NCBI GenBank assembly: GCA_963798485.1
Contig: CAWCTR010000008.1
Coordinates: 32,001 to 96,000 of the forward strand
DNA from: an uncultured delta proteobacterium
GTDB taxonomy: Bacteria; Desulfobacterota; Desulfomonilia; UBA1062
DNA: 64,000 bases
Reading direction: 5' to 3'
The translations under genes and the position numbers were made by a program. The notes below the pieces were generated by a model. That model had not been told where the DNA came from. It saw only the letters and a list, made by a program, of their open reading frames with translations, and ran no database searches. Shown piece after piece: positions 8,594 to 59,971 of this stretch. The stretch's first letter is position 1; every line of letters starts with the position of its first letter.

Positions 8594-8629
8594 GTGCGGG
8601 TGTGTTTTCTTGGCGCGGATGCCCCTGGA

Positions 8630-9619: not shown

Positions 9620-9629
9620 AAATGCTCTT

Positions 9630-10607: not shown

Positions 10608-10609
10608 AT

Positions 10610-11917: not shown

Positions 11918-12329
11918 TTTATAACTCCTCCTTTGGTGAAATATCGGCATGATATTTTTCGATGATGAATAATAATTGCTGAAAAAATAGGATTACACCG
12001 GGGGGGGAGGTTTGTATGCCCGAGAGCGACCATCATCTTAATGGTTGTCAATGCGGTGCGGCATCTATCCACCGTGCCGCCGGGATCTGAAATGAATGCC
12101 CATTCACTCTCATCGCTCCTAAAAACCGCCTGTCCTTCAAATGGTCTGTTTCCAGCCCTCTATGAGGTGGTGCCTCTTTTTTTTCTTTTAGACGTTCTTA
12201 TAAAAATTGCAAGCGATAAATGCAAAGTTTTGAAAATAAATTTCATCATGATCAATCACCTTTCGAGGATGGAGAATAGTATGGTATTGATGAATCGTTT
12301 CATAAAGACCACGTTAGCGAGGATATACC

Positions 12330-17499: not shown

Positions 17500-19561
17500 C
17501 TAACCATTATTTATAAGAGATTCGAGCATTTTTTCTATCTCAGTGGTCGGCTCCAGGCAGGTCGAACCAGTGCAGACATAGGCCGTTGCCCTGCCTTTAA
17601 GGGGGCGCTTACCCTGTATTAAAAGCGGCCGGTTCTTGTCCACTGTATCCGTGGCTAGCGCTATTATTGCATGGGGTAGGAAACGTCTCTGCAGCTCATC
17701 GATCATTCGCCGGGTGTCATCCTTGGACAGTTCTCCTGCGACGACAATCTCCTGGGCCGGACCTTCCATAAACCCCAGTCCGCAGAGCATGAAGGTGAAG
17801 CCGGTCGGGATATGGCTCGCCTGGCCGGAAAAGGTCTTTCCTATCATGGTGGCCCGATCTTTATAAGAGCGATCCCCGGTGAGCCCTCCAAGCCTTAAGA
17901 GGTCAAGCATGGCCACCGAATTGCCCGAAGGTATCGCATTGTCATATCCGGTCTTTGTCCGTGCAATGGGCACGGGGGTATCGTCTGCTGCAGCAAAGAA
18001 CCCGCCCTCAGTAATATCCCAGAAATGGTCGATCATGACTCCGGCGAGGTTCATGGCCGACGCCAGGTACTTCTCCTTAAAGACGGCCTCATAAAGCTCT
18101 ATAAGCCCCCAGATAAGGAAGGCATAGTCGTCGAGTCCTGCCTTACGATCGGCCTTTCCGTTCACAAAGACATGACTAAGCCTTCCTTCCGCCAGCATCT
18201 TCTCCAGGATGAAGTCAGCGGCCTTTTGAGCCGCATCGAGATACTCGGGGCTTGAAAAGGTTGCACCGGCCTTTGCAAGGGCCGCTATCATGAGCCCGTT
18301 CCAGTCGGTGAGCGCCTTGGTGTCTTTCATCGGTGGGATTCTATGTGAGCGGGCCTTTCTGAGCGTGCTCAGGATAGATTGAAGACGCACTGCAATGAAC
18401 TCGCTGTCCGTACCGTGCATCGTTGCAAGGGATGCAAGGTCCTGCCCCTGGCGGATGATGTTGGGCCCTTCCGGTGGATCGGAAGGAAAGTTCCCGGTTT
18501 CTTGCAGCCCGAAGGCTTGCGCTGCAAGGGCATAATCGGCATCGTCGAGGATGGCCTTCACCTCCGAGGTTCTCCAGAGGTAGTATTTCCCCTCCCCGCC
18601 TTCGCTGTCTGCGTCTTGTGCCCCGGCAAACAGGCCCTCGGGGGTGCGCAGGTCGCGGAGCACATAGGTGATGATCTCGCCGGCAATCCTGCGGAAGTCT
18701 ACGCGAAGAGTCACCTGAAAGGCCTCGGTATAGGCTATGGCGAGAAGGGCCTGGTCATAGAGCATCTTCTCGAAGTGGGGGACAAGCCACTTATCATCGG
18801 TCGCATACCGGTGGAACCCGAATCCGACATGGTCGTACATGCCGCCTGCATGCATGGCATGAAGGGTCTTCAGGGCCATGTCCAAAGCCTCCTCATTCTT
18901 AGTGCGGTAGTGATACCGCAGGAGGAACATGATGGTCTGGGGCATGGGGAATTTCGGTGCAGCGCCGAAACCGCCCTGTTCCCTGTCAAAACGTGACTTG
19001 AGCTCTTCATAGGCCTGGTCGAGGAGCTTCGGGTTCATGTCCGGCCCGGTCCGTACAATGCCTGAACGCCTGACCATCTGAGTAATCTCGGCAGCCTCGC
19101 TGATGACCCGGTCTCTCTTGTCTCGCCAGAGGGTTCCGAGACGCCCTTACGAGGTCCATCATCCCCATGAGGCCGGGTCTGGAGTGTTTGGGCAGGTAGG
19201 TGGCGGCGAAGAAAGGCTCTTTCTCTGGCGTCATGACGATTGTCAGCGGCCAGCCGCCGCTACCGGTAAGGACCTGGCATGTCTGCATGTAGATGTGGTC
19301 AATGTGCGGCAGCTCCTCCCTGTCAACCTTCACATTCACAAAGGTGTCGTTCATAAGGGATGCCACCTCGTTGTCCTCGAAGCACTCGTGGGCCATGACA
19401 TGGCACCAGTGGCAGGAGGAGTAACCGATGGAGAGGAATACGGGCTTGCATTCAGCCTTAGCCTTCTCGAAGGCCTCCTCGCCCCAAGGGAACCAGTCCA
19501 CCGGGTTATGGGCATGCTGGAGTAGGTAGGGACTTGACTCATTTAAGAGTCGGTTGTGCAT
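17500..19561 (-). pseudogene. YyaL/SPATA20-like thioredoxin-domain protein, split by a single-base frameshift near 19145
   Basis: NRL...[14 protein letters not shown] and CHWCH in one frame, APKFP, PHFEKMLYD and D.A.PSGNS in another; removing one G restores ...[17 protein letters not shown]... Confidence 0.85.
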
Positions 19562-19656
19562 GGTAAAGCCCTCCTGAACCACGGTCTGAGAATATCATAT
19601 AGCCCCTGGTTTTCCTTCAATAGGGAGGCGCTCCGTGATGATCAAGGGTTCCGGGT

Positions 19657-21492: not shown

Positions 21493-23925
21493 TTAATTCG
21501 GCTTCTTTTTATAGGTATTGCGGGGCCCGCCGCTGTTACCCTTGCTGCCGGAACCCTCCGGCAGGCGGTGCGCCTGGAAGGTCTCTGCACGTTGTTGCCC
21601 TATGTTGCGCGCTGTTCGCTCCTGTTCCAGGCGCGGCGTCACCCGGCCCTGTTCCTGCCCCTGAGCCGCTCTGGGGGCGCTAACGTGCTGCCAGGCTCCG
21701 GTCTGGCCTTGATGGAGGTAGACATTTCCTTCGTGTGTTGCATAGGCGTTGTTTCCCTCGGTTTCGCTCGGTTTTTCCCTGGAGGGTATGATTACCCGGG
21801 CAGGTGGGAGTTTCCCCTCGGTCAGGGCACCTTCAATCTTTTTTCCACCCTTCCCGATTACCTGCCTGGATTGTGGCGTTGCCATGCCGGCAGGCGACGG
21901 CCTGTTGTAAGCGGTTTTATTTCCTGATGGGAGTATCCCTCGAGATGGTGCGGCAAGATTGACGTTCGTACCTGAAGGATTTTTCATGCTGTACACGTTT
22001 CTTTCAGCATTACGGTGTCCTGTGATAAGCGTTCCGGTTGTGGAGTTATAGGCCATGCCGTATCTCGTGGATGAGCCACTGCCGGTGATGGGTCGATATT
22101 CGGCGGCAGGCCTTGACACCTTAGCATCTTTCCCCCACAGGCGGTATATATTGCTCGTTGTGCGTGCCCATCCGTCGGGGCCCCATGCCCTGATACGGGA
22201 TTGAGGGTGATGGCGCCAACCCCAATAGGGTCCCCACCAAGGCGCAGGCGGGTAATACCAGTATGGTCCCGAACCCCAAAACCACCCGAAGCCGAAGCTG
22301 AAACTCCAGCCCCCCCACGGGGTCCAGCTTATATCGGCCCCGTTGCAATATGTAACAGGGGGGCCATACCAGTACCTGCCGATCCAGGGCTGGTAATGAT
22401 AGCCCGTACCGTAGACCACAACATAATCAGGGCTTACCATACATCCATAATAACCAGGGGTGTAGCCGCTGTACACATAGTCAGGATCGGCATTGTAAAT
22501 CCGCACATACGTGACGAAGTGAAGGGGGGAGCCAGGTGGGATGGAATATATCACTCCCGGCACATGATCCGCCACCACCCAAGGACCGTCCAGTGAGTTT
22601 GCAAAAAACCAGACACCGTTTTCGCACGCATACCACGACCGTTCATTTTGCTTGATGATGGGGGTAGGGCTGTTGACTACATAGAAAAGCGGGGTTCCCT
22701 CGATTGGGGAAATTTGGGCCACGCCGTCTATCTGGGGTATGAAGGCGGCCTCTTTTCGGTCTATCTTTGCGGTCTGGGGAATGGAATTGGCAATAAGGGC
22801 CTCTTCTGCCTGGTCCGTTCCGGGTACTGACGCCTTCACATTCTCTTGCGGGCTCTCATCAGGAATACCGGCGAAGTCAGCAGGCAGGTGTTTACCGGGA
22901 ACATATTCCCATGGACCATTGAATGATACCGCCTTGAACCAGCGCCCACAGAGGAGGACATAGGTCTTCTGATCACCAAGATACTTGAACACATGTGCGC
23001 TCGTATTCTTCACATAGAGGAGTTTTGTCCCTTGTATGGGCACATAATTCGGTACACCGTCGGTCACGATGAGCTCTGCGGGTGTTGTAGAGACAAATAC
23101 AAGGGGCCCGACCTCTTCAAGGGTCGGATACTTGTTGGTTTGAGGATCGGCTTGACCTTCGAGCAGGTCTATCTGTTCCAGGCTGCGGGCCTCATTCATG
23201 GCTACAGAGATGTCCCTGGGTAGTTTTCTCGCAATAGTCCAGGGTCCATTCAGGCTCTGCGCCTCCATGAAGCCATTGAAAAGGTGGAAATAGTATTTCG
23301 CAGCCTTATCCTTGAGGAGGAGCACACGGGTATTTATGAGGCGCATGAGGGAACTGCCCTTGACAGGCATATAGCGGGGCTCGCCGTCGATGAACACCAG
23401 AACAGATGGCCGCTGTGAGAAGATGATGCGAGGGGGGGTGTTGTTAAGGGGTAGGGTTTTAACCTTTTTTTGTTCCTTGGTGACAGCCAGGCTCGCTTCC
23501 AGCCGGTCGAGGGACATGTTCTTCATCTGTGGCGGCCATGCCTGGCGCAATTCCGCGAGGATGGATGACTCTCTTGCCGGGTCGGATGGAAACTGTACGC
23601 TGGTAATGGCAAGGTCATTGAAATAAACCATGCGGTCGTTCTTGTCCACGATGGTATGTGCGGTGAGATAGGCCACTCCATAAAGGGATTGCTGCTTGCC
23701 GGGATTTCTCACGGCAAAGGCTGCATATGCCTTGAGCGTGAATCCGTCCCACGAGTCGAGTTGCGGCTGGAAAACCGTGTTCATGGTTCCGTCTGAGGCC
23801 TGGAATACCCTCGGCCAGCCATGATCCATGGGTTTTTCATCCTGTGCGGAAGACCTGGTTGATGGCAGGACGAGAGTAAGGATCATAACAGCCATGACGA
23901 ATGCTCGTCTTATATATATATCCAT
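21493..23925 (-). CDS. Large exported protein of unknown function with Gly/Trp/Tyr/Pro-rich region and basic low-complexity tail
   Basis: AGGAGG RBS before ATG 23925; signal peptide; three repeated W/F...S..GPW segments. Confidence 0.75.
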   Translation of the reverse strand: MDIYIRRAFVMAVMILTLVLPSTRSSAQDEKPMDHGWPRVFQASDGTMNTVFQPQLDSWDGFTLKAYAAFAVRNPGKQQSLYGVAYLTAHTIVDKNDRMVYFNDLAITSVQFPSDPARESSILAELRQAWPPQMKNMSLDRLEASLAVTKEQKKVKTLPLNNTPPRIIFSQRPSVLVFIDGEPRYMPVKGSSLMRLINTRVLLLKDKAAKYYFHLFNGFMEAQSLNGPWTIARKLPRDISVAMNEARSLEQIDLLEGQADPQTNKYPTLEEVGPLVFVSTTPAELIVTDGVPNYVPIQGTKLLYVKNTSAHVFKYLGDQKTYVLLCGRWFKAVSFNGPWEYVPGKHLPADFAGIPDESPQENVKASVPGTDQAEEALIANSIPQTAKIDRKEAAFIPQIDGVAQISPIEGTPLFYVVNSPTPIIKQNERSWYACENGVWFFANSLDGPWVVADHVPGVIYSIPPGSPLHFVTYVRIYNADPDYVYSGYTPGYYGCMVSPDYVVVYGTGYHYQPWIGRYWYGPPVTYCNGADISWTPWGGWSFSFGFGWFWGSGPYWYYPPAPWWGPYWGWRHHPQSRIRAWGPDGWARTTSNIYRLWGKDAKVSRPAAEYRPITGSGSSTRYGMAYNSTTGTLITGHRNAERNVYSMKNPSGTNVNLAAPSRGILPSGNKTAYNRPSPAGMATPQSRQVIGKGGKKIEGALTEGKLPPARVIIPSREKPSETEGNNAYATHEGNVYLHQGQTGAWQHVSAPRAAQGQEQGRVTPRLEQERTARNIGQQRAETFQAHRLPEGSGSKGNSGGPRNTYKKKPN

Positions 23926-23996
23926 ACAGGAGACCTCCTTAGTTTCAGGACATTTATAATGGCTCATCGATGTGTCTTGGCCGGCACATGCCGGTG

Positions 23997-24668
23997 TTAC
24001 TCCAGCCAGCCTTTGTCCTGCCAATACCGATATTCCCAGTCCCAGCGGTCTTTGCGCTTGATCATGATGTCCCGGAAATACCCGCGCATCCCTGCAATTG
24101 TCTGGAGCTGATCGGGGAATCGGCGTTTCTCTGCGATGGCCCTGACCAGATCCCGGCCCAGTTCGCCTGAGCGTTGCATGATATCCGATCCGGCCGCCAT
24201 GGGACCATCATCCAGGATACAGGCTATCTTTCCCACATCCTGCACCCCCAAACGGTTCAGGAGCGAGTGCAAGTAATCCGAGGTTTCAACCTGCCCGGAC
24301 CCCCCCGCCGTGGCCGCCACGGCGCCGTACTTGCCGAGCAGCCGCTGGCAGTGAATGGCATTCCCGAGCCGGTCGATGAAGGCCTTTAACTGGGCCGTGA
24401 CTTGGTAGATGTACACCGGGCTGCCGAGCACGATACCGTCGCTGGCGCACATCTTCTCGAACAGACCATTGAAATCGTCCTTCTGCACGCATACGCCCAG
24501 GTGATGGCACCGATCGCACCCGATGCAGCCGCCGATGGTCAGGGTGGTGATATCGATGTATTCCGTTTGCGCCCCGGCCGCCCCCGCCCCCGCAAGGATC
24601 TCTCCTACGATCTGTCCGGTACGGCTGAGACCCTTCCTGGGACTGCCGTTTACGGCTATGATTTTCAT
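23997..24668 (-). CDS. Flavodoxin family / iron-sulfur flavoprotein (Isf-like)
   Basis: NGSPRK, CIGCDRC...C, GSPVY, LKAFIDR. Confidence 0.88.
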   Translation of the reverse strand: MKIIAVNGSPRKGLSRTGQIVGEILAGAGAAGAQTEYIDITTLTIGGCIGCDRCHHLGVCVQKDDFNGLFEKMCASDGIVLGSPVYIYQVTAQLKAFIDRLGNAIHCQRLLGKYGAVAATAGGSGQVETSDYLHSLLNRLGVQDVGKIACILDDGPMAAGSDIMQRSGELGRDLVRAIAEKRRFPDQLQTIAGMRGYFRDIMIKRKDRWDWEYRYWQDKGWLE

Positions 24669-24725
24669 GCGTCTGCACCTCCGTTTCTTATGACTATGTA
24701 GCACTGAATCCCAATTACATCAAAC

Positions 24726-26904: not shown

Positions 26905-27041
26905 ATGAAAAGAATACTTATAGGTATCTTGATGATATTGATTCCGTGAAAGGTCGTGGAATAATGCAGCCTGTTGCCCTGAAGCCCGACGAGATCAAGG
27001 CGGTGATTGAATACATGACACACACTTTTAAAAAACAATGA
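26905..27041 (+). pseudogene. Internally deleted monoheme cytochrome c
   Basis: Signal-like MKRILIGILMILIP* followed out of frame by KGRGIMQPVALKPDEIKAVIEYMTHTFKKQ*, closely matching the C-terminus of the cytochrome at 31793-32134; no CxxCH. Confidence 0.8.
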
Positions 27042-27087
27042 ATATCACCAAACATTGTGTTCAGGCAAAATCCGAAGGAGGAAAGAG

Positions 27088-28449
27088 ATGAAGAGAATGA
27101 TATTCAAGAACTTGATTATCGTTCCGGTTTTCTTCTGTGTGTTCCTGTTCTTATTATCACTCAATGCTTATGCAATACCGAGTTATGCACGCCAGACAGG
27201 TATGTCCTGCAGTGCCTGTCACACTTCTTTCCCTGAGCTGACGCCCTTCGGCAGGCTCTTCAAACTGGGCGGTTATACCCTGAGCACGAGCGATAAACCC
27301 TATGAATTTCCTCCTCCCTTGTCGGCCCAGGCCCAGTTTTCTTATACGAATACGGGGAAAGCCCAGCCTCCGGATACAGTGGAGAGAGATTGGGCAACGA
27401 GGATGTCTTCTCAACAGAATAACTTTCTTAATGTACCGCAGAGTTTGAGCCTGTTCTATGGCGGCAAGATCTATTCCGGCATAGGCGCCTTTATCCAGGG
27501 CACGTATGATGGCGTCGATGATAGAACCGCGCTTGACACGATGGACATCCGTTTTGCCCAGAGCGTGGCCTACGGTGAAAGGAACCTCATATATGGCATT
27601 ACCATCAACAACAATCCCACAGCCCAGGATGTCTGGAACAGCACTCCCGCCTTCGGCTACCCTTACTCCGGATCGAGCGTTGCCCCGACTCCGACCGCAG
27701 CTGCGATCATCGATGGTACTCTCGGGGGGCAAGTGAGCGGCATCGGAGCTTATCTCTTCTGGGACAATATGATCTATGGTGAGGTTTCCGTATACCACTC
27801 AAACGAGAGCGGCCCCGGTCAGATCTTCAAAGGGAATAACGTGATCGATACGGTACTGGACGGCGTTGCTCCTTACTGGCGGATAGCTATTGAACATCAA
27901 TGGGATAAGCATTGCGCATCCATAGGCACGTACGGGATGGTGTCAAAGATATTTCCTGGCGGCGTAGACAGCGGACCAAGCGATAGTTTCAGGGATTTTG
28001 CCGTGGATGCACAATATCAGTATATCGGCGTCGAGCATGTCTTTTCAGCCCAGACATCATGGATTCATGAGAATCAGGACTGGGGTGCGAGTTTTGATCA
28101 GGGGGACACTGCCAATAAGACCGACCACCTTAATACATACAAGCTGAATTTGAAATATTATCACCGGGGAAGTATGGGCGACATGGGGGGTACGCTGGCC
28201 TATTTCTCAACGTGCGGTGATAAGGATACAGGGCTGTATAACCCCGACGACACCCCAGGCATCAACGGCAAACCCGATAGCAGCGGTTTCATCTACGAAC
28301 TGAATTATGTTCCCTCGAAATGGAGTAAGATAACCCTTCAATATATTTCATATAACAAATTCGACGGCGCCCGTTCAAACTATGACGGATCGGGAAGGGA
28401 TGCCTCAGACAACAACACGTTTTATTTTCTTCTCTGGCTGATTATCTGA
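27088..28449 (+). CDS. cyc2: Cyc2-like fused monoheme cytochrome c / outer-membrane beta-barrel protein
   Basis: Signal peptide, then IPSYARQTGMSCSACHTSFPELTPFGRLFKLGGYT (Cyc2 N-terminal signature); remainder is amphipathic, aromatic-rich beta strands. Confidence 0.8.
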   Translation: MKRMIFKNLIIVPVFFCVFLFLLSLNAYAIPSYARQTGMSCSACHTSFPELTPFGRLFKLGGYTLSTSDKPYEFPPPLSAQAQFSYTNTGKAQPPDTVERDWATRMSSQQNNFLNVPQSLSLFYGGKIYSGIGAFIQGTYDGVDDRTALDTMDIRFAQSVAYGERNLIYGITINNNPTAQDVWNSTPAFGYPYSGSSVAPTPTAAAIIDGTLGGQVSGIGAYLFWDNMIYGEVSVYHSNESGPGQIFKGNNVIDTVLDGVAPYWRIAIEHQWDKHCASIGTYGMVSKIFPGGVDSGPSDSFRDFAVDAQYQYIGVEHVFSAQTSWIHENQDWGASFDQGDTANKTDHLNTYKLNLKYYHRGSMGDMGGTLAYFSTCGDKDTGLYNPDDTPGINGKPDSSGFIYELNYVPSKWSKITLQYISYNKFDGARSNYDGSGRDASDNNTFYFLLWLII

Positions 28450-28771
28450 TTGTTTAGGTGACGAGACGGTTATTCGACTGTTGACTGTACAGACATGATC
28501 CCATAGTTTTGAAGGCCGCGATGGGGTGCTCTTATCTTCATCCTACCCTTTGTGCTGTTCTGGGTCATCAGTCATATTTTCCCCATTTTTGAACAAGAAA
28601 AGGCTCACTAAATCTGCAAGAGCCTTCTCTCACGGGAGACCCGCTGTCAGCAGAGGACGCTCAAAAAATTGAATGTAATGTTGTATTCTCTTCGAAATTA
28701 TTCTACAATGTGCACCATATTTGCATTTTTCCTTGAATAACGCCGATCCAACACTGCCCCGGGGAGATGAT

Positions 28772-29287
28772 ATGGAAGAAGGAAACAATGCATCCTGGCG
28801 TTGCTGTCTCATTGCATTCCTGACAGTGGTCTTTTTCTCTGCAAATATGTATGCGGAAGAACAGGATATACCGAAAAAGTTCTTCGTCACGCCGCCCCCG
28901 TTCAGTGCAGGCATCTATCCTTGCTCAATGTGCCACAAAGGCTTGCCCGCCAACACACAACCAAGAAAACTTCAGTTCCATGGTAACATCGTTCTGAAGC
29001 ATATGCCCGGCGGCTGGTGCTTCGAATGCCATAATCCGGACAACAGGGACAAATTACGGCTCGCGAACGGCAAATTGATCAGCTTTGAGGAATCATACAA
29101 TCTCTGCGGCCAGTGCCACGGAACGATACTGCGAGAATGGAAGGCCGGCCTGCACGGGAAGAGGACCGGCATGTGGAAAGGCGATAAGCAGTACTATCTT
29201 TGCGTAAGCTGCCATTCGCCGCATGAACCGCGGTTTAAGCCGATCAAACCGTCTCCACCGCCGGTGAGTCCGATGGAGATCAAGTAA
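28772..29287 (+). CDS. Tetraheme cytochrome c
   Basis: Signal/anchor; CSMCH, CFECH, CGQCH, CVSCH. Confidence 0.88.
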   Translation: MEEGNNASWRCCLIAFLTVVFFSANMYAEEQDIPKKFFVTPPPFSAGIYPCSMCHKGLPANTQPRKLQFHGNIVLKHMPGGWCFECHNPDNRDKLRLANGKLISFEESYNLCGQCHGTILREWKAGLHGKRTGMWKGDKQYYLCVSCHSPHEPRFKPIKPSPPPVSPMEIK

Positions 29288-29311
29288 TACATAACGAGGA
29301 CGAGAAGACCG

Positions 29312-30238
29312 ATGCAAAAAACCGTGAAGAAAATGGATGTAATTCATCTTGACCGCAGGACCTTTCTCAAGGGCGTGGCCCTCGGCCTGGCGGGGACAGC
29401 GCTCCCGCTGAACAAGGCCGATGCCTCGTTCTGGGAATCGTTTTTTCAGAAGCACTTTAAGGAAATGAATGATGCCGAGATCAAGCAGGTGCTCGGCCGT
29501 CTGGAGCGGGAATACGAAGAAAAATATAAAAAAGTGATCAAGGTTGGCAATCAGAAAGCGATGCCGGGAGTTATCTTCGGTTACGGGCTCGATCTTTCCC
29601 GATGCATCGGCTGCAGGAGATGCGTTTATGCCTGCGTTGAGGAGAACAATCAATCCAGGGACCCGCAGATCCACTGGATATCGGTCCTCAGATTCAAAAA
29701 AGGGGAAAAGTGGGTCGATCTTGTGGAATCGGAGAAGTATTACAACCCGGAAAAGGTGCCTGAAGAGGGATATTTTTATATGCCGGTCCAATGCCAGCAG
29801 TGCAAGAACCCGCCCTGTGTAAGGGTCTGTCCTACGCAGGCCACCTGGAAAGAGCCGGACGGGATCGTGGTCATCGATTATAACTGGTGCATTGGCTGTC
29901 GCTACTGCATGGCCGCCTGTCCCTATGGGGCGCGCCACTTTAATTGGACCGATCCGGGCCGCAAGTCAGGCGAGATCAATCCGCAGACGCATTATCTCGG
30001 GAACCGCCCGCGCTATAAAGGAGTGGTTGAGAAGTGCACCTTTTGTATCCAGCGGACGAGGAACGGACGCTACCCGGCGTGCGTTGAGGCCTGCCCCGTA
30101 GGCGCGCGCAAATTCGGGAACCTCCTTGATCCGAACAGCGAGATCAGGTACGCCATTGAGCACAAGCGGGTGTTCCGGTTGAAAGAGGACTTGAATACGT
30201 ATCCCACGTTCTATTATTTCTTTGCGTACGGCGTGTAG
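29312..30238 (+). CDS. Tat-exported 4x[4Fe-4S] protein (NrfC/DsrO/HmcB-like)
   Basis: RRTFLK; CIGCRRCVYAC, CQQC..PPC..VCP, CIGCRYCMAACP, CTFC...CVEACP. Confidence 0.9.
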   Translation: MQKTVKKMDVIHLDRRTFLKGVALGLAGTALPLNKADASFWESFFQKHFKEMNDAEIKQVLGRLEREYEEKYKKVIKVGNQKAMPGVIFGYGLDLSRCIGCRRCVYACVEENNQSRDPQIHWISVLRFKKGEKWVDLVESEKYYNPEKVPEEGYFYMPVQCQQCKNPPCVRVCPTQATWKEPDGIVVIDYNWCIGCRYCMAACPYGARHFNWTDPGRKSGEINPQTHYLGNRPRYKGVVEKCTFCIQRTRNGRYPACVEACPVGARKFGNLLDPNSEIRYAIEHKRVFRLKEDLNTYPTFYYFFAYGV

Positions 30239-30249
30239 GAGACCCACGT

Positions 30250-31482
30250 ATGGCAAGTTTGATCAAAAATTCTTTTATCGCCTTCCGTCAGATATTCATC
30301 GGCAACCGGGCTTACTACCTCTGGGTCGGCTTCCTGACGTTTTTTATTCTCCTCGGACTGGGCGCGTATATTGATCAGTACCACCGGGGACTCATAGTAA
30401 CCGCCATGAGGGATCAGGTTTCGTGGGGGCTGTACCTCTCGAATTTCACCTTTCTTGTCGGTGTGGCTGCCGCCGCAGTGTTGCTCGTGGTTCCGGCTTA
30501 CGTGTATAACTTCAAGCCGATCAAGGAAATCGTGCTGTTCGGCGAGCTGCTCGCCATCACGGCCATAACCATGTGTATCCTCTTCATAATGATCGACATG
30601 GGGCAGCCTCTGCGGGTATGGCATATTTTGCCGTTCATCGGCGCCATGAATTTCCCTTCGTCACTGCTCACCTGGGACGTGATCGTCTTAAGCGGATATC
30701 TCGCCATCAATGTAATCATTGCATTTTACGTTCTCTCCCGGCTTTCGATCGGGAAGGAGTACAGTATGGCCGTGATTTGGCCGCTGATCATTCTGTCCAT
30801 TCCATGGGCGGTGAGCATCCACACGGTGACGGCGTTCCTCTATAACGGACTCTCGGCCAGGCCCTTCTGGAACGCCTCGATCCTGGCCCCGAGGTTTCTT
30901 GCTTCGGCGTTCTGTTCCGGACCCGCCATCATGCTGGTCCTGTTCCAGATCATCAGAAAACGTTCTGAGGTAGAGATCGATAACAAGGCGATCTTCAAAA
31001 TCGCCGAATTGATCGCCTATGCCATGGCGATCAATTTGTTCCTTCTGGGCGCAGAGGCATTCAAGGAATTTTATTCGGGCGCCGTTGACAGCTATTCCAT
31101 AGAGTATCTGTACTTCGGCCTAAAGGGGAAAGCGAGCCTGGTGCCCTGGATGTGGGCCGCATCCCTGTTCAATATCACGGCGTTCTTTCTCTTTCTCTTT
31201 CCGAGGACACGTGAGAATTTCACGACGCTAAACATCGGATGTGTGCTGATCATTATGGGCGTGTATATAGAGAAGGGGATTGGGCTTATTGTACCCGGCT
31301 TTGTTCCGGATACACTCGGGGAGATTTATGAATACTCTCCGAGCTCAACGGAGATTGTCATTACCATGGGCGTATGGGCTTTCGGTGCGCTTATCTACAC
31401 GATCCTGCTGAAAATTGCAGTGCCGATCTATACGGGAAAACTTCGGTTCGAGATAAAAGAACGGAACGTTATCACGCGGTAA
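30250..31482 (+). CDS. NrfD/PsrC/DsrP-family quinone-interacting membrane subunit
   Basis: About 10 TMs; WGLYLSNFTFLVGVAA, DMGQP.R, SIHTVTAF, APRFLASAF. Confidence 0.9.
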   Translation: MASLIKNSFIAFRQIFIGNRAYYLWVGFLTFFILLGLGAYIDQYHRGLIVTAMRDQVSWGLYLSNFTFLVGVAAAAVLLVVPAYVYNFKPIKEIVLFGELLAITAITMCILFIMIDMGQPLRVWHILPFIGAMNFPSSLLTWDVIVLSGYLAINVIIAFYVLSRLSIGKEYSMAVIWPLIILSIPWAVSIHTVTAFLYNGLSARPFWNASILAPRFLASAFCSGPAIMLVLFQIIRKRSEVEIDNKAIFKIAELIAYAMAINLFLLGAEAFKEFYSGAVDSYSIEYLYFGLKGKASLVPWMWAASLFNITAFFLFLFPRTRENFTTLNIGCVLIIMGVYIEKGIGLIVPGFVPDTLGEIYEYSPSSTEIVITMGVWAFGALIYTILLKIAVPIYTGKLRFEIKERNVITR

Positions 31483-31584
31483 TGCAGCATTCAGTGAGTT
31501 GCGTCCGGGCTCTCGGCTAGGAAGCAGGTGTTTACGAGCGGTCGACGTGATCACCTCATGGGCGCCATCTACGCTCCGGTGGGT

Positions 31585-31664
31585 CTGTACATCTACTGAT
31601 AACAGACTTAGCACACAGAAAAAACAGGAACAATAAATAGCTTGTTTAATAACATACTATTCAT
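31585..31664 (-). pseudogene. 5' remnant (RBS plus signal peptide) of a second cyc2-like gene
   Basis: ggaggaagagaaagATG... MNSMLLNKLFIVPVF/FCVLSLLSVDV aligns with the intact gene's ggaggaaagagATG MKRMIFKNLIIVPVFFCVFLFLLSLNA. Confidence 0.65.
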
Positions 31665-31792
31665 CTTTCTCTTCCTCCTGTAATAATTGTGCTGTGTGTC
31701 CATCACAGGTGAAGGTTACTCTATAAAGACCTCCATATATCGCCATGAGGGACGTATGTCCGATGGCTACTTTATTCGATAAATATCTCTCA

Positions 31793-32134
31793 CTATTTTT
31801 TGAATGAATTTGCCATATATTCGGTTATGGCTTTGATCTCATCAGGTTTTAAGGCAATAGGCTGCATGATGCCAGATCCTTTTGTGATGGCTTTGGCAAT
31901 CTCAGTGTCGGTGTTTTTCTTCCAGAAGTTTGATTTTGTAAAATTGGTCGGCTTTGGTTTGAGCGCAGGTGCTGCCTGACCTTTCCCATCACCGTTTACG
32001 CCATGGCAAACCTTGCAGTTATTGTTATAAAGATCTTTTCCATTGTCAGTCTTATCTGCCGCCCTTGATAAGCCCTGTAAGGCAAGCATTGATAAGAACA
32101 ATACCACTATTGAAAATATCATAAGTTTTTTCAT
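31793..32134 (-). CDS. Periplasmic monoheme class I cytochrome c
   Basis: Signal peptide, CKVCH, PKPTNF, distal Met in GIMQP. Confidence 0.9.
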   Translation of the reverse strand: MKKLMIFSIVVLFLSMLALQGLSRAADKTDNGKDLYNNNCKVCHGVNGDGKGQAAPALKPKPTNFTKSNFWKKNTDTEIAKAITKGSGIMQPIALKPDEIKAITEYMANSFKK

Positions 32135-32285
32135 AACATCACCTTTCATTTTTTAATATGAAATGGAATCTAACCCAATATATCAAACTCTACAACAGGT
32201 TTATTATAAGAATTTTAAAATATCTCATTATCTATATCTATTAGATATAACCTCATGATCACAATTATCAAGTAATGAATATTAG

Positions 32286-32570
32286 ATAGTTAATCATTCT
32301 GCGGAGGAAATACTGGTAGGTGAAAAGATATTTGAAGCAAATTGCAGAAGCTGCCACCCCCAAGGTGGAAACATCATCAACCCCAAACTCTCTTTACGGA
32401 ATTCGCCACAGCTGGCAGATCTCAATGCTTTCATTGCCTACAATCGCAATCCGAAGCAGCCTGACGGATCAAAAGGCATAATGCCGCCATACCCTCCCGA
32501 TAAGATATCGGACCAGCAGATGAGAGATCTGTATAACTATAGTAAAGCCGGTTTTGGGAACAAGCCATAG
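32286..32570 (+). pseudogene. Cytochrome c6-like domain lacking start codon and signal peptide (not in ORF track)
   Basis: GEKIFEANCRSCHPQGGNIINP...GIMPPY...ISDQQMRDLYNY; in-frame TAG at 32283. Confidence 0.78.
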
Positions 32571-37655: not shown

Positions 37656-39761
37656 ATGGGCATTGATGTTCATAGCGGGGAAGAACTCCGGAAAAATTCT
37701 TTACTTGATAACCCTTACCTTATCCCTTTCAGGCGATCGGACCTCAAGCGATCCCCATTTTTCTCGTCCGGCATTGATCAAAAACAATTCGTGAATGCAA
37801 TGAATTTCAGGAACTTTGTTGACGATCAGATTTTTGCACACATGATCTTCCCTCATACCAAAGAGGAGTTTCTCTTCAAGGTAATCCCGGGGCCATGCAC
37901 CGGAAGCGAGGTAACTTTCTCGCTTCCGGAAGGATCCATCCAAGACTTTGAAGACTTCATTTTCAAGGGCCTCCTGGTGGACAACGGAAAGTCCGTGATA
38001 ATGATGCAGGCGGACCCTCTTTTTGTCACATCCCGTCTTTTGGCTGTCAAGCTTCGGAAGACAGGCGTCATATATCAGGCCCGTCATGCCGGAAGGCATC
38101 TGTGCCAAAATGTGAATGCACGGGTCAGTCATGATGACATCGAATATGCCGGGGCCCTTTACGAGTTTAATCCTGCAGGGCTGCGGATCGAATTGAAAGG
38201 CATCCCATGGACGTCTTCCGGGTCCCAGGCCTCAGCCGAGCCCATTAAAGTAGATCTTATGCGCGGTGGCAGGCTGATATTTTCGGGTATGTCAAAACTC
38301 ATCCGTACCGAGAACCAGGGCAAAACCATTGTTCTCACACCCCTGAACATCCCCCAGAAAAAAAACGGCGGGCGGAAAAACCGTAATCCGCGCCTGAATC
38401 TTGTTCCAAGCCCTGAGGTGAAATTCACGCATCCTCTGACAGGGATGAGGGTATCCTACGACATAGTCGACATCAACTCTTCGGGCTTCTCCGTGATGGT
38501 GGAATCAGACTCGTCGCTCCTTATGCCGGGCATGATTATTGAAGAAGCCTTCATAGACTTTGCAGGCGGCCTCAACCTGAAGTGCCCGGTCAAGGTCGTC
38601 TATGGGGAAAAGAAGAAAAAGAACTGCATCCAGTACGGTTTTCTGATCACTGATATCGATGTCGCTTCCTACAATCAGCTGTTCAACGTTATATCAAGGG
38701 CCGACGACCCCTATGCGCGGGTATCTTATGACGTGGATATGGCATCCTTATGGAACTTCTTTTTCGAGTCCGGGTTTATATACCCGGAGAGATACACGGG
38801 CATCGCCCAGTATAAAGACGATTTTAAAGAAACATATAAAAAATTGTACCATCAATGTCCTGATATATTCGCGAACTTGACGTATGAGCGCAACGGTGTG
38901 ATCTATGGCCACGTTTCCCTGATCAAGGCATATGAAAGGTCATGGCTGGTCAACCACCTTGCCACCAAGGACATCGGTATGAAAATTACCGGGCACTATG
39001 TCCTGAAACAAATACTCAACTATCTCGACAGCATCACCCGGATGCCGTCAATCGGCATGGATTATATGATCATCTATTTCCCCCCTGAAAACCGTTTTCC
39101 CAATAATTTTTTCAGCAACGCCTACAGGGCGGTGAACAACCCTTCGCACCTCTCCATGGACACGTTTGCCTATCTGAACATAGACCTGCCCCAATCAATT
39201 CCCGACCTGCCCAAGGGCTGGACGGTGAGTGAGAGCTCCCCCAAAGACATCCTTAATCTTGGCGCCGCATACAAGCAGCTCTCCGACGGCATCCTGGTGG
39301 ATGCCTTAGGTCTCGATTCACAGAAACGCACCGGGGAATCCATCGGGGAAACTTATAAAAAATACGGGCTCAGCAGGATATGCAGTTCATATACCTTGTT
39401 CCATGACAACAATCCCCAGGCATACTTTGTAGTCGACCAGAGCGACAGGGGCGTTAATCTTTCCGATCTGATCAACAGTATTAAGGTTATTGTGCCTCAA
39501 AGCAGCTCTGTCCCATGGTATGTGCTCCATGCAGCCATCTGTGAGTGCGGCAAAGATTACGATATAAAGACGATAACGGTACAGATCTTCCCTTGCGAAT
39601 ACATGGACAGGGCAGGTGTCCCGTATAAGAAACGTCATGTAATATGGGTGCTGGACACCCACTATCTGAACGCCAACATCGATATCATAAAGAATATGGC
39701 CCGGATCAATCCTGCCCAATACCTGAAAGGTGTCGTCAGCAGTTTTATCAGGGGCGGCTGA
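37656..39761 (+). CDS. PilZ-like domain protein with large C-terminal domain
   Basis: RHAGR...EFNPAG and RNPR...DINSSGFSV...YGF degenerate PilZ motifs. Confidence 0.65.
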   Translation: MGIDVHSGEELRKNSLLDNPYLIPFRRSDLKRSPFFSSGIDQKQFVNAMNFRNFVDDQIFAHMIFPHTKEEFLFKVIPGPCTGSEVTFSLPEGSIQDFEDFIFKGLLVDNGKSVIMMQADPLFVTSRLLAVKLRKTGVIYQARHAGRHLCQNVNARVSHDDIEYAGALYEFNPAGLRIELKGIPWTSSGSQASAEPIKVDLMRGGRLIFSGMSKLIRTENQGKTIVLTPLNIPQKKNGGRKNRNPRLNLVPSPEVKFTHPLTGMRVSYDIVDINSSGFSVMVESDSSLLMPGMIIEEAFIDFAGGLNLKCPVKVVYGEKKKKNCIQYGFLITDIDVASYNQLFNVISRADDPYARVSYDVDMASLWNFFFESGFIYPERYTGIAQYKDDFKETYKKLYHQCPDIFANLTYERNGVIYGHVSLIKAYERSWLVNHLATKDIGMKITGHYVLKQILNYLDSITRMPSIGMDYMIIYFPPENRFPNNFFSNAYRAVNNPSHLSMDTFAYLNIDLPQSIPDLPKGWTVSESSPKDILNLGAAYKQLSDGILVDALGLDSQKRTGESIGETYKKYGLSRICSSYTLFHDNNPQAYFVVDQSDRGVNLSDLINSIKVIVPQSSSVPWYVLHAAICECGKDYDIKTITVQIFPCEYMDRAGVPYKKRHVIWVLDTHYLNANIDIIKNMARINPAQYLKGVVSSFIRGG

Positions 39762-40251
39762 GGGCCCGGCAATCATTTAAATCACAGAGATTTCTACTTT
39801 TGTTTGAGTAAGGTGTTCTTATAGAACGATATACAGTACCTCTCTACGTAGCGTGTCGAGATCTCCGAATGATAGCTTCAGTATTAACTGACTAGAGATA
39901 ACCTCACGAAAGCATAACTTTTTGAACCGAGCCATAATTCAAGGTTTCGTGCCAGTATCGTCATTCCAGACATGGAACTCAAACAACATAGATATCATCA
40001 GCAGATCTTCAGTTTCAAAATATATTAAAACCTGAACATTTATCGCAGGAATCAACGATCCAGCAAATGATCTCATATTTATGATTATACTGTAGAGAAT
40101 TCTCAGGTCTTGTAATCCAACCATAATGCTATATAATTAAAACAATGGCTCTTTCCTCCTTTGTGATTTCCTATTCATCCAGAGAGCCCTTTGTTTTGGC
40201 ATTCTGAGTTACAGTATCATTGTTTATTATCGAAAGTGATAAGGAGAAACA

Positions 40252-41037
40252 ATGCACATAGAATTAATAAGGCACAAACCAGTGAATGAAGTAAAATCAA
40301 CTCCGATATTGTTTGTTCATGGAGCATGGCATGGCGCTTGGTGCTGGGAAGAACATTTTTTGCCTTACTTTGCTGATCATGGATACGATTCATACGCTCT
40401 AAGTCTTCGTGGCCATGGAAATAGCGAAGGACGTGAAGGTCTACGTTGGTGGAGTATTTCTGATTACGTGGATGATGTTTCTCAAGTCATTACTCAACTG
40501 CCTAATGTTCCAATTTTAGTGGGACATTCAATGGGTGGACTCATTGTTCAAAAATACTTGCAGTTTCATAGAGTTCCTTTAGCAGTATTGTTGGCGCCGG
40601 TCCCAACTACAGGAGTGATGAAGACAACATTAAGAATAGCCAGTCGACATTTTTCAATTTTGTTAAAGGTATTCTCCTCATTTAGCCTATATCCAGTAAT
40701 TGCTACTCCAAATTTAGCTCGCGAAGCTTTCTTCTCATCCGATATTTCTGAGGATAAGCTGGATAAGTACTTCAAACAGTTACAAGATGAATCATTTAGA
40801 GGGTTTTTAGATATGACCTTCTGTTTGCCAAGGCCCAAAAAGGTTTATGATCCTATATTATTGGTCGGTGCTCAAGATGATAATATTTTCTCAACAAAGC
40901 AGATGGATGCGACAGCTAGAGCTTATCACAGTAAAGCTGTGATATTCAATAATATGGCCCATGATATGATGCTTGAAAAGGATTGGCAAGATGTCGCAGA
41001 TCATATCCTTGACTGGTTGAAAGCCCAAAAGTTTTAA
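40252..41037 (+). CDS. Alpha/beta hydrolase (esterase/lysophospholipase-like)
   Basis: HGAWHG, LRGHG.S, GHSMGG, AHDMML. Confidence 0.9.
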   Translation: MHIELIRHKPVNEVKSTPILFVHGAWHGAWCWEEHFLPYFADHGYDSYALSLRGHGNSEGREGLRWWSISDYVDDVSQVITQLPNVPILVGHSMGGLIVQKYLQFHRVPLAVLLAPVPTTGVMKTTLRIASRHFSILLKVFSSFSLYPVIATPNLAREAFFSSDISEDKLDKYFKQLQDESFRGFLDMTFCLPRPKKVYDPILLVGAQDDNIFSTKQMDATARAYHSKAVIFNNMAHDMMLEKDWQDVADHILDWLKAQKF

Positions 41038-41183
41038 AACCAGAGACAAACTCAGTGATGATTTCGTTCCAGGATCGGCACTCAGCGCTTGTAGCCTGAA
41101 TATCATAGATTTGAAAACGAAATGTTCAGTTTTCAGCCTTCTCAAAACCGTGATGAAATCGCAGAGATCTACGGTTTCATAAA

Positions 41184-41211
41184 AAGGCAGAGCCACAATT
41201 GACTCTGCCTT
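41184..41211. terminator. Hairpin, probable terminator
   Basis: aaggcagagcca-caat-tgactctgcctt. Confidence 0.5.
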
Positions 41212-41283
41212 AAATTATTCATAGGATCTATCAGGTCAAGAGGGTATTGCGTGTGCCATTATCAAAGGAGATAGAATATATTT

Positions 41284-42264
41284 ATGAAACCAGAATTAGT
41301 TCTCAGCTTATGTATGAAATTTATGGAATCAAGGATCCTACTAACTGCTACTGAACTTGATATATTCAGTCTCTTAACACATCCGATGTATGCCCGGGAA
41401 ATTGCGGATAAAACACAGGCCACCTTGCGCGGTGTCACGATATTACTTGATGCGCTTGTGTCTATAGGCTTACTCGAAAAGAAACAAACGAAATATTGTT
41501 GTTCACAGGAAGTATCCTCATTGTTATCGAAAGACTCACCGACTTCAATAGTACCAATGGTCATGCATACAGTTGGACTATGGAAAAGATGGTCAGATCT
41601 AACTGAGATCGTTCGACACGGTATACAAGAAACAAAACCTTTAGGACCTGCCAGGAGTGAAATCGAACAAGAGGCGTTCATTGGAGCCATGCATGCGATC
41701 GCATCCAGAATAGCCCCTGGTATCGTTGCAGCTATCAATCCTGGAGCAGCGAAAAATTTACTCGACATAGGTGGTGCATCAGGATCGTATACGCAAGCTT
41801 TTCTTGAGGTCTCCCCTGAAATGAGAGCGACAATATATGACTTACCTTCAGTTATTAACATGGCTCAAAAGCGTCTTGCTGCCACTGATTTTCATAATCG
41901 GATTACATACATTGCCGGCGATTTTTATTTAGATGAATTACCTGCAGGTTATGACCTTGTTCTCGTATCAGCTATCATTCACCAGAATAGTAATGAACAG
42001 AATATTGAACTGTACCGCAAGATTTATCGTTCTCTAATCTCAGGTGGAAGGCTTGTTATACGAGACCATGTCATGAGTCCTGATCATACCCATCCTACAA
42101 CGGGAGCCATTTTTGCTGTGAATATGCTGGTTGGGACCCTTGGTGGTTCCACCTACAGTTTTAAAGAAATCGATGAAGGACTTAAAACAGCTGGGTTTAC
42201 TAAAATCAGGCTTATTCAACCCGATAAGCACATGGATGGATTGGTGGAGGCATCTAAGATTTGA
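41284..42264 (+). CDS. SAM-dependent O-methyltransferase with dimerisation domain
   Basis: LLDIGGASG, YDLP, AGDF, GGRLVIRD. Confidence 0.88.
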   Translation: MKPELVLSLCMKFMESRILLTATELDIFSLLTHPMYAREIADKTQATLRGVTILLDALVSIGLLEKKQTKYCCSQEVSSLLSKDSPTSIVPMVMHTVGLWKRWSDLTEIVRHGIQETKPLGPARSEIEQEAFIGAMHAIASRIAPGIVAAINPGAAKNLLDIGGASGSYTQAFLEVSPEMRATIYDLPSVINMAQKRLAATDFHNRITYIAGDFYLDELPAGYDLVLVSAIIHQNSNEQNIELYRKIYRSLISGGRLVIRDHVMSPDHTHPTTGAIFAVNMLVGTLGGSTYSFKEIDEGLKTAGFTKIRLIQPDKHMDGLVEASKI

Positions 42265-52478: not shown

Positions 52479-52479
52479 C

Positions 52480-59666: not shown

Positions 59667-59971
59667 GTACCTCCTTCTATGTTCATGCCTGCGGTACAAG
59701 CTTACCATACTAGAAATAGCATGACGTTGGAAGACCTACCCCATTATCTCGCTCGTCATGACAAATCAATTTTTGATGATGCAATAGAACACTATGATGC
59801 CATCGGCCTGGCAGGTAACACGAACCCTGATCTTGCAGAGCCTTCCTGGATGCCGGCCTGGAACAGGGAGAAATACCCCGATAGTCACCCGTTGTCTGTC
59901 CAGGAGGCGCATGTTATATAACCGCCAGGTGAGGATATGTTTGTAGTTGTTCTTACAAAGGAGGTTCCTGA

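Follow-up and report, generated by a model that had tools for sequence, protein, structure and literature searches.

A Cyc2-like cytochrome-porin gene beside a tetraheme-FeS-NrfD cassette: a candidate electron conduit between the outer membrane and menaquinone

Cyc2 of Acidithiobacillus ferrooxidans and Cyc2 PV-1 of Mariprofundus ferrooxydans are cytochrome-porins of about 450 amino acids (aa) with a signal peptide, a single CXXCH heme site, an N-terminal consensus, a PXL motif and an OprO/OprP-like barrel. In this work, a 64,000-nucleotide stretch of contig CAWCTR010000008.1 (positions 32,001 to 96,000; hereafter the window) was analysed, in which a Cyc2-like gene was found next to the genes of a tetraheme cytochrome, an iron-sulfur (FeS) protein, an NrfD-type membrane subunit and a class I cytochrome c. 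The criteria given for Cyc2 by Keffer et al. 2021 comprise a signal peptide, one CXXCH, the motif AXPXFAR[Q/K][T/Y] before the heme site, PXL four residues after CXXCH, a length of at least 365 aa and a 16-strand OprO/OprP-like porin (PMC8406198). Cyc2 is thought to trade electrons with dissolved iron entering the pore, and the heme potential of Cyc2 PV-1, the one neutrophilic Cyc2 measured, was +208 mV (PMC8406198). A small c-type cytochrome gene is often located before or after cyc2, as in the cyc2-cyc1 pair of the rus operon, and the window is alike in this respect.

In the published model, electrons pass from Cyc2 through a periplasmic cytochrome and alternative complex III (ACIII) or bc1 to quinone, and ACIII itself contains NrfC- and NrfD-type subunits (PMC4643136). 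For A. ferrooxidans growing anaerobically the opposite course was proposed, from quinol through bc1 and cytochromes to Cyc2 as an Fe3+ reductase (PMC7735108). The window follows the same logic. However, the genes of those models are generally distributed over different operons in their organisms, with ACIII or bc1 as the complex, whereas the window has a minimal tetraheme-FeS-NrfD module that lacks a molybdopterin-like subunit and is clustered physically with cyc2.

Cbc4 of Geobacter sulfurreducens (CbcS-CbcT-CbcU) was proposed to act in extracellular electron transfer as a menaquinol:periplasmic cytochrome oxidoreductase (bioRxiv 10.1101/2025.04.14.648717). As described there, it combines a tetraheme cytochrome having an N-terminal helix and four bis-His hemes with a 4x[4Fe-4S] protein and a membrane subunit, and the window module is similar, the heme ligation being a prediction for the latter. 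CbcS is described as a member of the NapC/NirT family, whereas the window tetraheme cytochrome had no PF03264 (NapC/NirT) match at E<=0.01, and the two were set apart on the basis of description; the same domain was present in 1 of the 120 listed tetraheme homologues. Moreover, Geobacter uses multiheme porin-cytochrome conduits and not Cyc2.

A 'novel membrane-bound redox complex' of Ferrigenium straubiae is encoded by three adjacent genes (IMG genes 2878408594-96), one for a multiheme cytochrome, one for a 4x[4Fe-4S] protein and one for an NrfD/PsrC-like membrane subunit whose quinone pocket resembles that of ACIII. These genes were among the most up-regulated under nitrate-reducing Fe(II) oxidation, and the complex was assigned by the authors to nitrogen-oxide reduction, with nitrite or denitrification in view (bioRxiv 10.64898/2026.01.22.701106). 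F. straubiae itself oxidises Fe(II) and possesses Cyc2, and in the latter respect it is comparable to the window. The hexaheme cytochrome there carries four bis-His and two His-Met hemes and was likened, by its description, to the window tetraheme cytochrome plus the class I cytochrome c. This match of heme sets is an analogy and is regarded as suggestive. The two systems differ in that all six hemes of the F. straubiae complex are held by one protein, and adjacency to cyc2 is not reported in the available text.

The DsrJOP part of DsrMKJOP and the Nhc and Qrc complexes of Desulfovibrio likewise unite a cytochrome c, an FeS protein and an NrfD subunit facing the periplasm, and NrfD-type subunits hold a quinone site and proton paths (PMC8076601). 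Unlike these complexes, the window has no DsrM, DsrK or DsrJ and no molybdopterin-like QrcB, and its cytochrome has four hemes, compared with three in DsrJ, six in QrcA and nine in NhcA.

The features of the window region, taken from open reading frames (ORFs) and their translations, were as follows (bp, base pairs; Tat, twin-arginine translocation):

26938..26965, + strand: promoter-like site 5' of the cyc2-like gene, TTGATT-16-AATAAT with TG, on weak evidence
27055-28449, + strand: cyc2-like cytochrome-porin gene, longest ORF from TTG 27055, 464 aa
28450..28771, + strand: spacer of 322 bp between the cyc2-like and tetraheme genes, with conserved non-coding DNA from about 28523-28531 onward
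28523..31509, + strand: 3-kb cassette (upstream region with the tetraheme, FeS and NrfD genes), blastn match to the contig L006 described below
28772..29287, + strand: tetraheme c-type cytochrome gene, 171 aa from ATG 28772, the ORF opening at TTG 28721
29312..30238, + strand: gene of a Tat-exported 4x[4Fe-4S] ferredoxin-type subunit of the NrfC/DsrO/QrcC type
30250..31482, + strand: gene of an NrfD-family integral membrane subunit, closest to DsrP, with a presumed quinone site
31793..32149, - strand: class I monoheme cytochrome c gene, 118 aa, convergent with the NrfD gene

Hence, the region held five genes in the order cyc2, tetraheme, FeS and NrfD on the + strand, followed by the cytochrome c gene on the opposite strand. 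The gaps between the tetraheme and FeS genes and between the FeS and NrfD genes were 24 bp and 11 bp, respectively. The promoter consensus was found 12 times in the region, compared with 10.0 +/- 3.0 times in shuffled sequences, and the site at 26938..26965 alone was not significant.

The likely start of the cyc2-like gene was ATG 27088 or 27097; close relatives begin at MIFKNL..., the equivalent of ATG 27097. The translation opened with a basic start and a hydrophobic run forming a signal peptide that ended in ...LNAYA and was followed by IPSY; the sequence after LNAYA reads IPSYARQTGMSCSACHTSFPELTPFGRLFKLGGY. The only CXXCH of the protein (CSACH) was found at residue 52 of 464. The motif before the heme site, AIPSYARQT, matched AXPXFAR[Q/K][T/Y] at 6 of the 7 specified positions, with the conservative Y where F was expected, so that the strict published filter would reject it; behind the heme site the order CSACH-TSF-PEL placed PXL four residues after CXXCH, as in the Cyc2 criteria. 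With 450-464 aa, the protein exceeded the lower limit of 365 aa. The stretch fits the pattern of the Cyc2 N-terminal signature given in an earlier sequence-only reading of this DNA, and the family assignment made there was borne out.

The beta-rich body described in the same reading proved to be a confidently predicted barrel. The AlphaFold2 (AF2) model, calculated from an alignment of 138 sequences, reached a mean predicted local distance difference test score (pLDDT) of 90.6 and a predicted template modelling score (pTM) of 0.87, and consisted of a helix at residues 22-33, a short helical heme-binding segment and 16 strands between residues 89 and 463. Foldseek matched the model to OmpF-type porins in the Protein Data Bank (PDB) at E 1e-8, with OprP (2o4v) and OprO (4rjx) at query template modelling scores (TMq) of 0.47 and 0.45, respectively. 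The language-model atlas pointed to clusters named 'Cytochrome C family protein' and gave a hint of Porin_O_P. No Pfam or NCBIfam family matched the protein, and the sequence search of the PDB gave matches at chance level only (E about 1).

Homologues were abundant, in numbers well above those expected by chance. At E<=1e-3, 5443 of the 8000 scored candidates were accepted, with values down to E 1e-293, and among 1.84 billion representatives 3362 clusters of 50% identity matched at E<=1e-3 and 443 at <=1e-30. Exactly one CXXCH was present in 257 of the 270 homologues retrieved; the strict PxFARQT was carried by 173 of them and the Y form by 22. Of the 196 homologues with a fitting motif region, 175 had PXL, and the consensus over the 138 aligned sequences was AVPSFARQTG. 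The relatives included loci of Paraburkholderia and other Burkholderiales (L025, L033), taxa which are also named among those with Cyc2 homologues in the Cyc2 literature (PMC8406198).

Based on motifs and the structural model, the product of 27055-28449 is predicted to be a fused monoheme cytochrome-porin with a variant motif, a member of the Cyc2 family or at least a close homologue of it. It differs from the Cyc2 consensus by Y in place of F, and its C-terminus ends in ...LII rather than in an aromatic residue; the LII end was common to P0001, P0002 and P0003, which are the closest relatives (68-94% identical). A subclade with PSYARQ may be missing from the published Cyc2 tree, since the filter used for building that tree demanded F. 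The probable host also differs from known Cyc2 hosts, being a Desulfomonilia-like, probably anaerobic bacterium that is not a known iron oxidiser. An anaerobic host is made plausible by the two-subunit Fe-S fumarase and the radical-SAM lysine aminomutase encoded in the window and by a Desulfomonilia metagenome-assembled genome (MAG) being the nearest cassette relative.

The four-heme cytochrome, the Tat-exported 4x[4Fe-4S] protein and the NrfD/DsrP subunit noted on the same strand were all recovered. Four CXXCH motifs were present in the ORF 28721/28772-29287(+), whose product started with a signal or anchor helix and matched the Pfam families Cytochrome_C7 (6.4e-09) and Paired_CXXCH_1 (1.2e-07). 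The only solved relative found by sequence was NrfB (2ozy, E 0.0011). Beyond the CXXCH motifs, four further histidines (H70, H77, H128 and H151) were invariant or near-invariant among 61 aligned sequences, which suggests that the protein carries four bis-His hemes. The AF2 model of the protein was poor (pLDDT 48.3, pTM 0.29), with the N-terminal helix 6-24 confidently modelled. Among its 1183 homologues, of 94-300 aa, those named by their source were all labelled 'hypothetical protein' or 'uncharacterized CHY-type Zn-finger protein', and they came from Desulfomonilia, Nitrospirota and Thermodesulfovibrionia.

In the FeS subunit, RRTFLKG was recognised as a twin-arginine signal (Pfam TAT_signal, E 0.0035), and 16 Cys were arranged as four ferredoxin motifs (Pfam Fer4_11, 2.6e-22). 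Its solved relatives were ArrB (6cz7_B, 4.9e-35), PsrB (2vpw_B) and ActB, and the NCBIfam scores were 196 bits for DsrO (cut-off 200), 158 for QrcC (400) and 126 for NrfC (378). The membrane subunit matched Pfam NrfD at E 1.6e-35, and 424 bits were obtained for NCBIfam DsrP (cut-off 350), 47 for QrcD (570) and 19 for NrfD (348). Among solved proteins, it was related to ActC of alternative complex III (8k9e_C, 2.3e-09; 6btm_C; 6f0k_C). The best 120 homologues were all 83-97% identical to it and were named NrfD/PsrC anchor in Nitrospirota, polysulfide reductase in Nitrospirae and DsrP in a Betaproteobacteria MAG. Judged by these family matches, the NrfCD-type assignment holds, and the tetraheme-FeS-NrfD module is likely a complex of the quinone-interacting type. 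The class I cytochrome c contained a signal peptide, the heme site CKVCH and a Pfam Cytochrom_C domain (E 7.1e-13), and members of its family are located directly 5' of cyc2-like genes elsewhere.

Several known identities were tried for the module and rejected. The scores for NrfBCD were far from the cut-offs (NrfC 126/378, NrfD 19/348 and NrfB 21/184 bits), and there were four hemes, not five. ACIII and QrcABCD were dismissed on the scores of QrcC (158/400) and QrcD (47/570), and no molybdopterin-family ORF was present in the window. It was concluded from these sequence comparisons that the cassette probably works like Cbc4, Nhc, Qrc or DsrJOP and is identical to none of them by the tests run, the distinction from Cbc4 being one of description.

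Among the 54 window ORFs scanned with Pfam (10 + 44), no molybdopterin, hydrogenase, DsrM, DsrK or terminal-oxidase domain was found, which agrees with the stated absence of a catalytic molybdoenzyme or hydrogenase subunit. The same reading spoke of small class I cytochromes in the plural; a single one (31793-32149, - strand) was recovered among the 7 window ORFs of at least 60 aa that contained CXXCH, hence the plural was dropped. The CXXCH-containing ORFs outside the cluster were a 62-aa ORF at 12256-12444(-), a thioredoxin-like gene at 19007-19582 and a flavin reductase gene at 23997-24704, the latter two identified by Pfam matches, and an ORF at 51591-52529(-), which was antisense to an ABC-transporter gene.

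A discrete 3-kb cassette was formed by the tetraheme, FeS and NrfD genes, and it recurred in L006, a Desulfomonilia MAG contig of which 17 kb was examined. A single blastn match of 2988 bp with 96.2% DNA identity joined positions 28523-31509 of the window to 12471-9485 of L006, and the identities of the tetraheme, FeS and NrfD proteins were 92%, 97% and 97%, respectively. The match covered about 240 bp of non-coding DNA 5' of the tetraheme gene and all three genes, and it stopped 27 bp past the NrfD stop codon. In the spacer, similarity began abruptly near 28531 by pairwise alignment (28523 by blastn). The conserved part of the spacer probably holds the cassette's own regulatory region. No convincing terminator (fold z-score 0.81) and no Rfam family were detected in the 322-bp spacer, and no repeats were found at the cassette boundaries. 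A sigma-54-like stretch seen by eye 5' of the tetraheme gene was dropped, as it was not conserved in L006.

The DNA flanking the cassette was unrelated between the window and L006, except for weak matches of cyc2 and cytochrome c. There too, the cassette was adjoined by a cyc2-like gene (48% aa identity to that of the window) and a class I cytochrome c gene (47%), in the order cytochrome c and cyc2 on one strand, followed by the convergent NrfD, FeS and tetraheme genes. In a quick maximum-likelihood analysis with 89 Cyc2-like sequences, the window protein grouped with P0001, P0002, P0003 and P0011 (support 95-100), and the L006 protein was placed in a separate clade of six rows (support 100). 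In that clade, 5 of the 6 members had a membrane-anchored DUF2231-cytochrome c fusion 3' of cyc2, and L006 had the cassette there instead.

Further, the neighbourhoods of cyc2-like genes were surveyed at 80 loci, which represent the best of at least 587 relatives and show 40-52% identity; they were obtained by a genome scan with a 26-sequence alignment. The set does not include classical iron oxidisers, and P0001-P0003 lie outside it. The ORFs within 4 kb of cyc2 were clustered, recurrent clusters were named by Pfam and NCBIfam, and the window proteins were searched against the ORFs of the loci. The 80 loci belonged to Thermodesulfobacteriota, Nitrospirota, Acidobacteriota, Bacteroidota, Ignavibacteriota, Gemmatimonadota and many Pseudomonadota, including Paraburkholderia.

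The conserved partner of the cyc2-like genes in these 80 loci was a small c-type cytochrome. A same-strand CXXCH ORF within 400 bp of cyc2 was present in at least 43 of them, a lower bound owing to greedy filtering of overlapping ORFs. In 22 loci cyc2 was followed by a diheme cytochrome of about 220 aa, in 11 it was preceded by a monoheme class I cytochrome according to clustering, and homologues of the window cytochrome c were detected by phmmer (31-112 bits) directly 5' of cyc2 on the same strand in 15. Genes of high-potential iron-sulfur proteins (HiPIPs) occurred in 9 loci.

A quinone-interacting membrane complex was found within 4 kb of cyc2 in 8 loci and was of four unrelated types, the tetraheme-FeS-NrfD cassette of L006 being one. 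In L064 (7998-14656), cyc2 was followed on one strand by genes for cytochrome c, a pentaheme cytochrome and molybdopterin-like, FeS and NrfD subunits; this set best matched QrcA/B/C, below their cut-offs, and such a set beside the cyc2-like gene distinguishes L064 from the window. In L029 (7980-12393), L043 (1602-5925), L070 (7555-12048) and L078 (7971-12718), cyc2 and sometimes cytochrome c preceded, on one strand, a Rieske protein gene and a cytochrome b-diheme c fusion. These five loci come from MAGs of Bacteroidota and Ignavibacteriota, the cyc2-like gene heads each cluster, and each cluster resembles an operon in which a Cyc2-type porin is combined with a complex-III-type enzyme. In L009 and L011, genes for cytochrome b and an octaheme cytochrome were divergent from cyc2. 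Two outcomes that would have refuted the earlier reading, a protein with no predicted barrel and homologues that never co-occur with the NrfCD module, were thus not obtained: a barrel is predicted, and L006 provides a case of co-occurrence. Such cases were rare, however, amounting to 1 of the 80 loci with the cassette and 8 with any quinone complex.

Two side features were recorded in the same loci. A membrane-domain fusion of about 240 aa (DUF2231 with a class I cytochrome c) was encoded 3' of cyc2 in 6 loci (L003, L004, L007, L010, L012 and L026) and may be an inner-membrane anchor point of the pathway. Paired cyc2-like paralogues were located a few kb apart in L039 (2377-3723 and 7962-9332) and in L057 (6137-7549 and 7965-9371).

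The identity and architecture of each part of the cluster were observed as described, and so was the recurrence of the neighbourhood. It was proposed from this gene neighbourhood that the products of the five genes would form one conduit between the outer membrane and menaquinone, operating in either direction, which we hold with moderate confidence. The cooperation of the parts, the order of the partners, the substrate and the direction would then be as follows. The NrfD-type membrane subunit would exchange electrons and protons with menaquinone/menaquinol. At the periplasmic side it would be wired by the Tat-exported 4x[4Fe-4S] subunit to the tetraheme cytochrome, which is probably bis-His and low-potential. 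The class I (His/Met-type) cytochrome c would shuttle electrons across the periplasm to or from the Cyc2-family porin, whose one heme at the mouth of the 16-strand barrel would exchange electrons with small soluble extracellular redox species, with Fe(II)/Fe(III) complexes as candidates. Such roles agree with general experience, in which an FeS subunit of this kind is a wire, and multiheme and class I cytochromes carry the electrons on the periplasmic side.

For the direction, outward flow was tentatively favoured, that is, oxidation of menaquinol and export of electrons. The chain would run from menaquinol through the FeS subunit, the tetraheme cytochrome, cytochrome c and Cyc2 to an external oxidant. 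FeS clusters and bis-His hemes are usually low-potential and class I cytochromes high-potential. Outward flow would run downhill, since the low-potential FeS clusters and bis-His hemes would stand near the membrane and the high-potential class I cytochrome and Cyc2 at the other end. Besides this likely potential ladder, the lean towards outward flow was based on the lack of a terminal reductase or oxidase nearby among the scanned ORFs and on the precedents of Cbc4 and A. ferrooxidans.

Several observations weigh against the proposed conduit or its direction. The cassette was seen in only 1 of the 80 loci, a survey made up of loci other than the contexts of P0001-P0003. It has its own conserved upstream DNA, stands 322 bp from cyc2 and is convergent with cyc2 in L006, hence co-transcription with cyc2 is not required. 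Since the NrfD and tetraheme subunits are very widespread, most cassette copies must work without an adjacent Cyc2. The juxtapositions in the window and in L006 may not be independent, because the strongly supported branches of the tree force only one origin of the cassette-cyc2 juxtaposition, not two; the whole cluster may be of shared ancestry. The similar F. straubiae complex was tied by its authors to denitrification, not to Cyc2, in the available text (bioRxiv 10.64898/2026.01.22.701106), and the published Cyc2 biochemistry is Fe(II) oxidation, opposite to the favoured direction (PMC8406198). The points on the cassette and on F. straubiae also speak for a rival explanation, in which the genes are neighbours that share no job. 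The cassette would then be an autonomous quinone-linked periplasmic oxidoreductase, similar to Cbc4, Nhc, Qrc or the Ferrigenium complex, and would serve other donors or acceptors of the periplasm, for example nitrogen oxides, sulfur compounds or the cytochrome pools that hydrogenase or formate dehydrogenase feeds, with Cyc2 and cytochrome c using other membrane partners; the extreme spread and conservation of the cassette proteins and the description of the F. straubiae analogue as specific to nitrate-reducing conditions (bioRxiv 10.64898/2026.01.22.701106) fit such a role. We consider this explanation rather unlikely. Two different cyc2/cytochrome c pairs adjoin the same cassette between unrelated flanks, and no alternative periplasmic enzyme partner was encoded among the scanned ORFs of the window. 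Moreover, the recurrence of cyc2-like genes beside four unrelated kinds of quinol:cytochrome c oxidoreductase suggests that links to the quinone pool are common in this family, and the shared cassette of the window and L006 would be one such link.

The same conduit could also be run inward, with Cyc2 oxidising extracellular Fe(II) or another soluble reductant and the electrons reducing menaquinone through the cytochromes and the FeS subunit; proton motive force would drive this if needed, as in the 'uphill' ACIII/bc1 branch proposed for iron oxidisers, and the quinol would then feed an anaerobic reductase whose genes lie elsewhere. Fe(II) oxidation is the activity of the characterised Cyc2 proteins, Cyc2 PV-1 with +208 mV among them (PMC8406198), the Cyc2-Cyc1-ACIII model of iron oxidisers has this direction (PMC4643136), and Qrc-type NrfD complexes reduce menaquinone (PMC8076601). 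However, the transfer from a heme of about +200 mV to menaquinone is uphill and no energy source is evident here, the 54 scanned ORFs contained no terminal reductase or oxidase, and the Cyc2 authors themselves call the function of homologues outside the well-supported iron-oxidiser clades most uncertain (PMC8406198). Inward flow was judged distinctly unlikely. An identity of the FeS and NrfD genes with dsrO and dsrP of DsrMKJOP was tried and rejected as very improbable. The DsrP score was well over its cut-off, and P0477, an 86%-identical homologue of the membrane subunit, was labelled DsrP by its source, but DsrO remained just under its cut-off, no DsrM, DsrK or triheme DsrJ was matched in the adjacent DNA or elsewhere among the 54 ORFs, the four-heme cytochrome had no DsrJ match at E<=0.01, and no dsrMK was present within the 17 kb of L006 that were examined. 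The label DsrP, which automatic pipelines will give to the membrane subunit, is misleading here.

As a separate matter of annotation, the NCBIfam 'equivalog' model of DsrP passed the membrane subunit (424 vs 350 bits) where no dsrMKJ genes were present, and a widespread non-Dsr NrfD subfamily is probably over-annotated as DsrP systematically. The widespread tetraheme-FeS-NrfD cassette is uncharacterised and liable to be mislabelled as DsrP/DsrO.

The earlier reading knew of no characterised case of this gene combination. The general Cyc2-cytochrome-quinone scheme and cytochrome-FeS-NrfD triplets are already published and to that extent the claim was reduced; no paper describing cyc2 beside a tetraheme-NrfCD module was found by a full-text literature search, which did not cover supplementary gene-neighbourhood tables.

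The gene cyc2 is widely used as a metagenome marker of microbial iron oxidation, for example in FeGenie. To our knowledge, most Cyc2-family members occur in organisms with no known iron metabolism. A broader, speculative and doubtful reading is that, beyond the classical iron oxidisers, the porins of this family serve as electron gates of the outer membrane in general. A small cytochrome c would connect the gate to the quinol:cytochrome c oxidoreductase that the lineage happens to have, be it tetraheme-FeS-NrfD, Qrc/ACIII-like, Rieske/cytochrome b, or cytochrome b with an octaheme cytochrome. In anaerobes such as the Desulfomonilia-like host of the window, the flow would be outward, and electrons would leave through the gate in a respiration that oxidises menaquinol with soluble Fe(III) or humic-type acceptors; in that case, cyc2 would not mark iron oxidation. 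The cassette would act as an adaptor of this gate in the inner membrane, exchangeable and moving laterally. The cluster offers a small testable system for the direction of flow through a non-classical Cyc2 and for its connection. Should the flow be outward, environmental cyc2 counts would need reinterpretation, and a very small, five-protein route of extracellular electron transfer would be available for study and engineering.

Other parts of the window contained several features of minor interest. At 8111-11950(-), a lysine 2,3-aminomutase-like radical SAM gene preceded a pair of ATP-grasp genes of the D-Ala-D-Ala ligase-like kind and a gene for a GNAT acetyltransferase, and these may belong to a pathway of a beta-lysine-derived compatible solute or peptide. 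Two overlapping ORFs at 17500-19582(-), one of 191 aa with a DUF255 thioredoxin domain and one of 525 aa with no family at E<=1e-6, resembled a single DUF255/YyaL-type gene that a frameshift or a sequencing error has cut in two. The 843-aa protein of 21493-24024(-) had no Pfam or NCBIfam match at E<=0.01 and showed repeated 'NGPW'-type segments and a C-terminal part rich in Gly, Trp and Tyr. Similarly, the 701-aa protein of 37656-39761(+) had no match at E<=1e-6 in a scan with Pfam only. The G+C content of 40001-42000, where alpha/beta hydrolase and O-methyltransferase genes are located, was 0.395 compared with about 0.50 in adjoining windows, and the stretch may be foreign DNA. Finally, the 296-aa ORF at 58818-59708(-), in a region of local G+C 0.599, matched in two stretches only the N-terminal domain of dihydroxy-acid/6-phosphogluconate dehydratase and may be a truncated or frameshifted gene.

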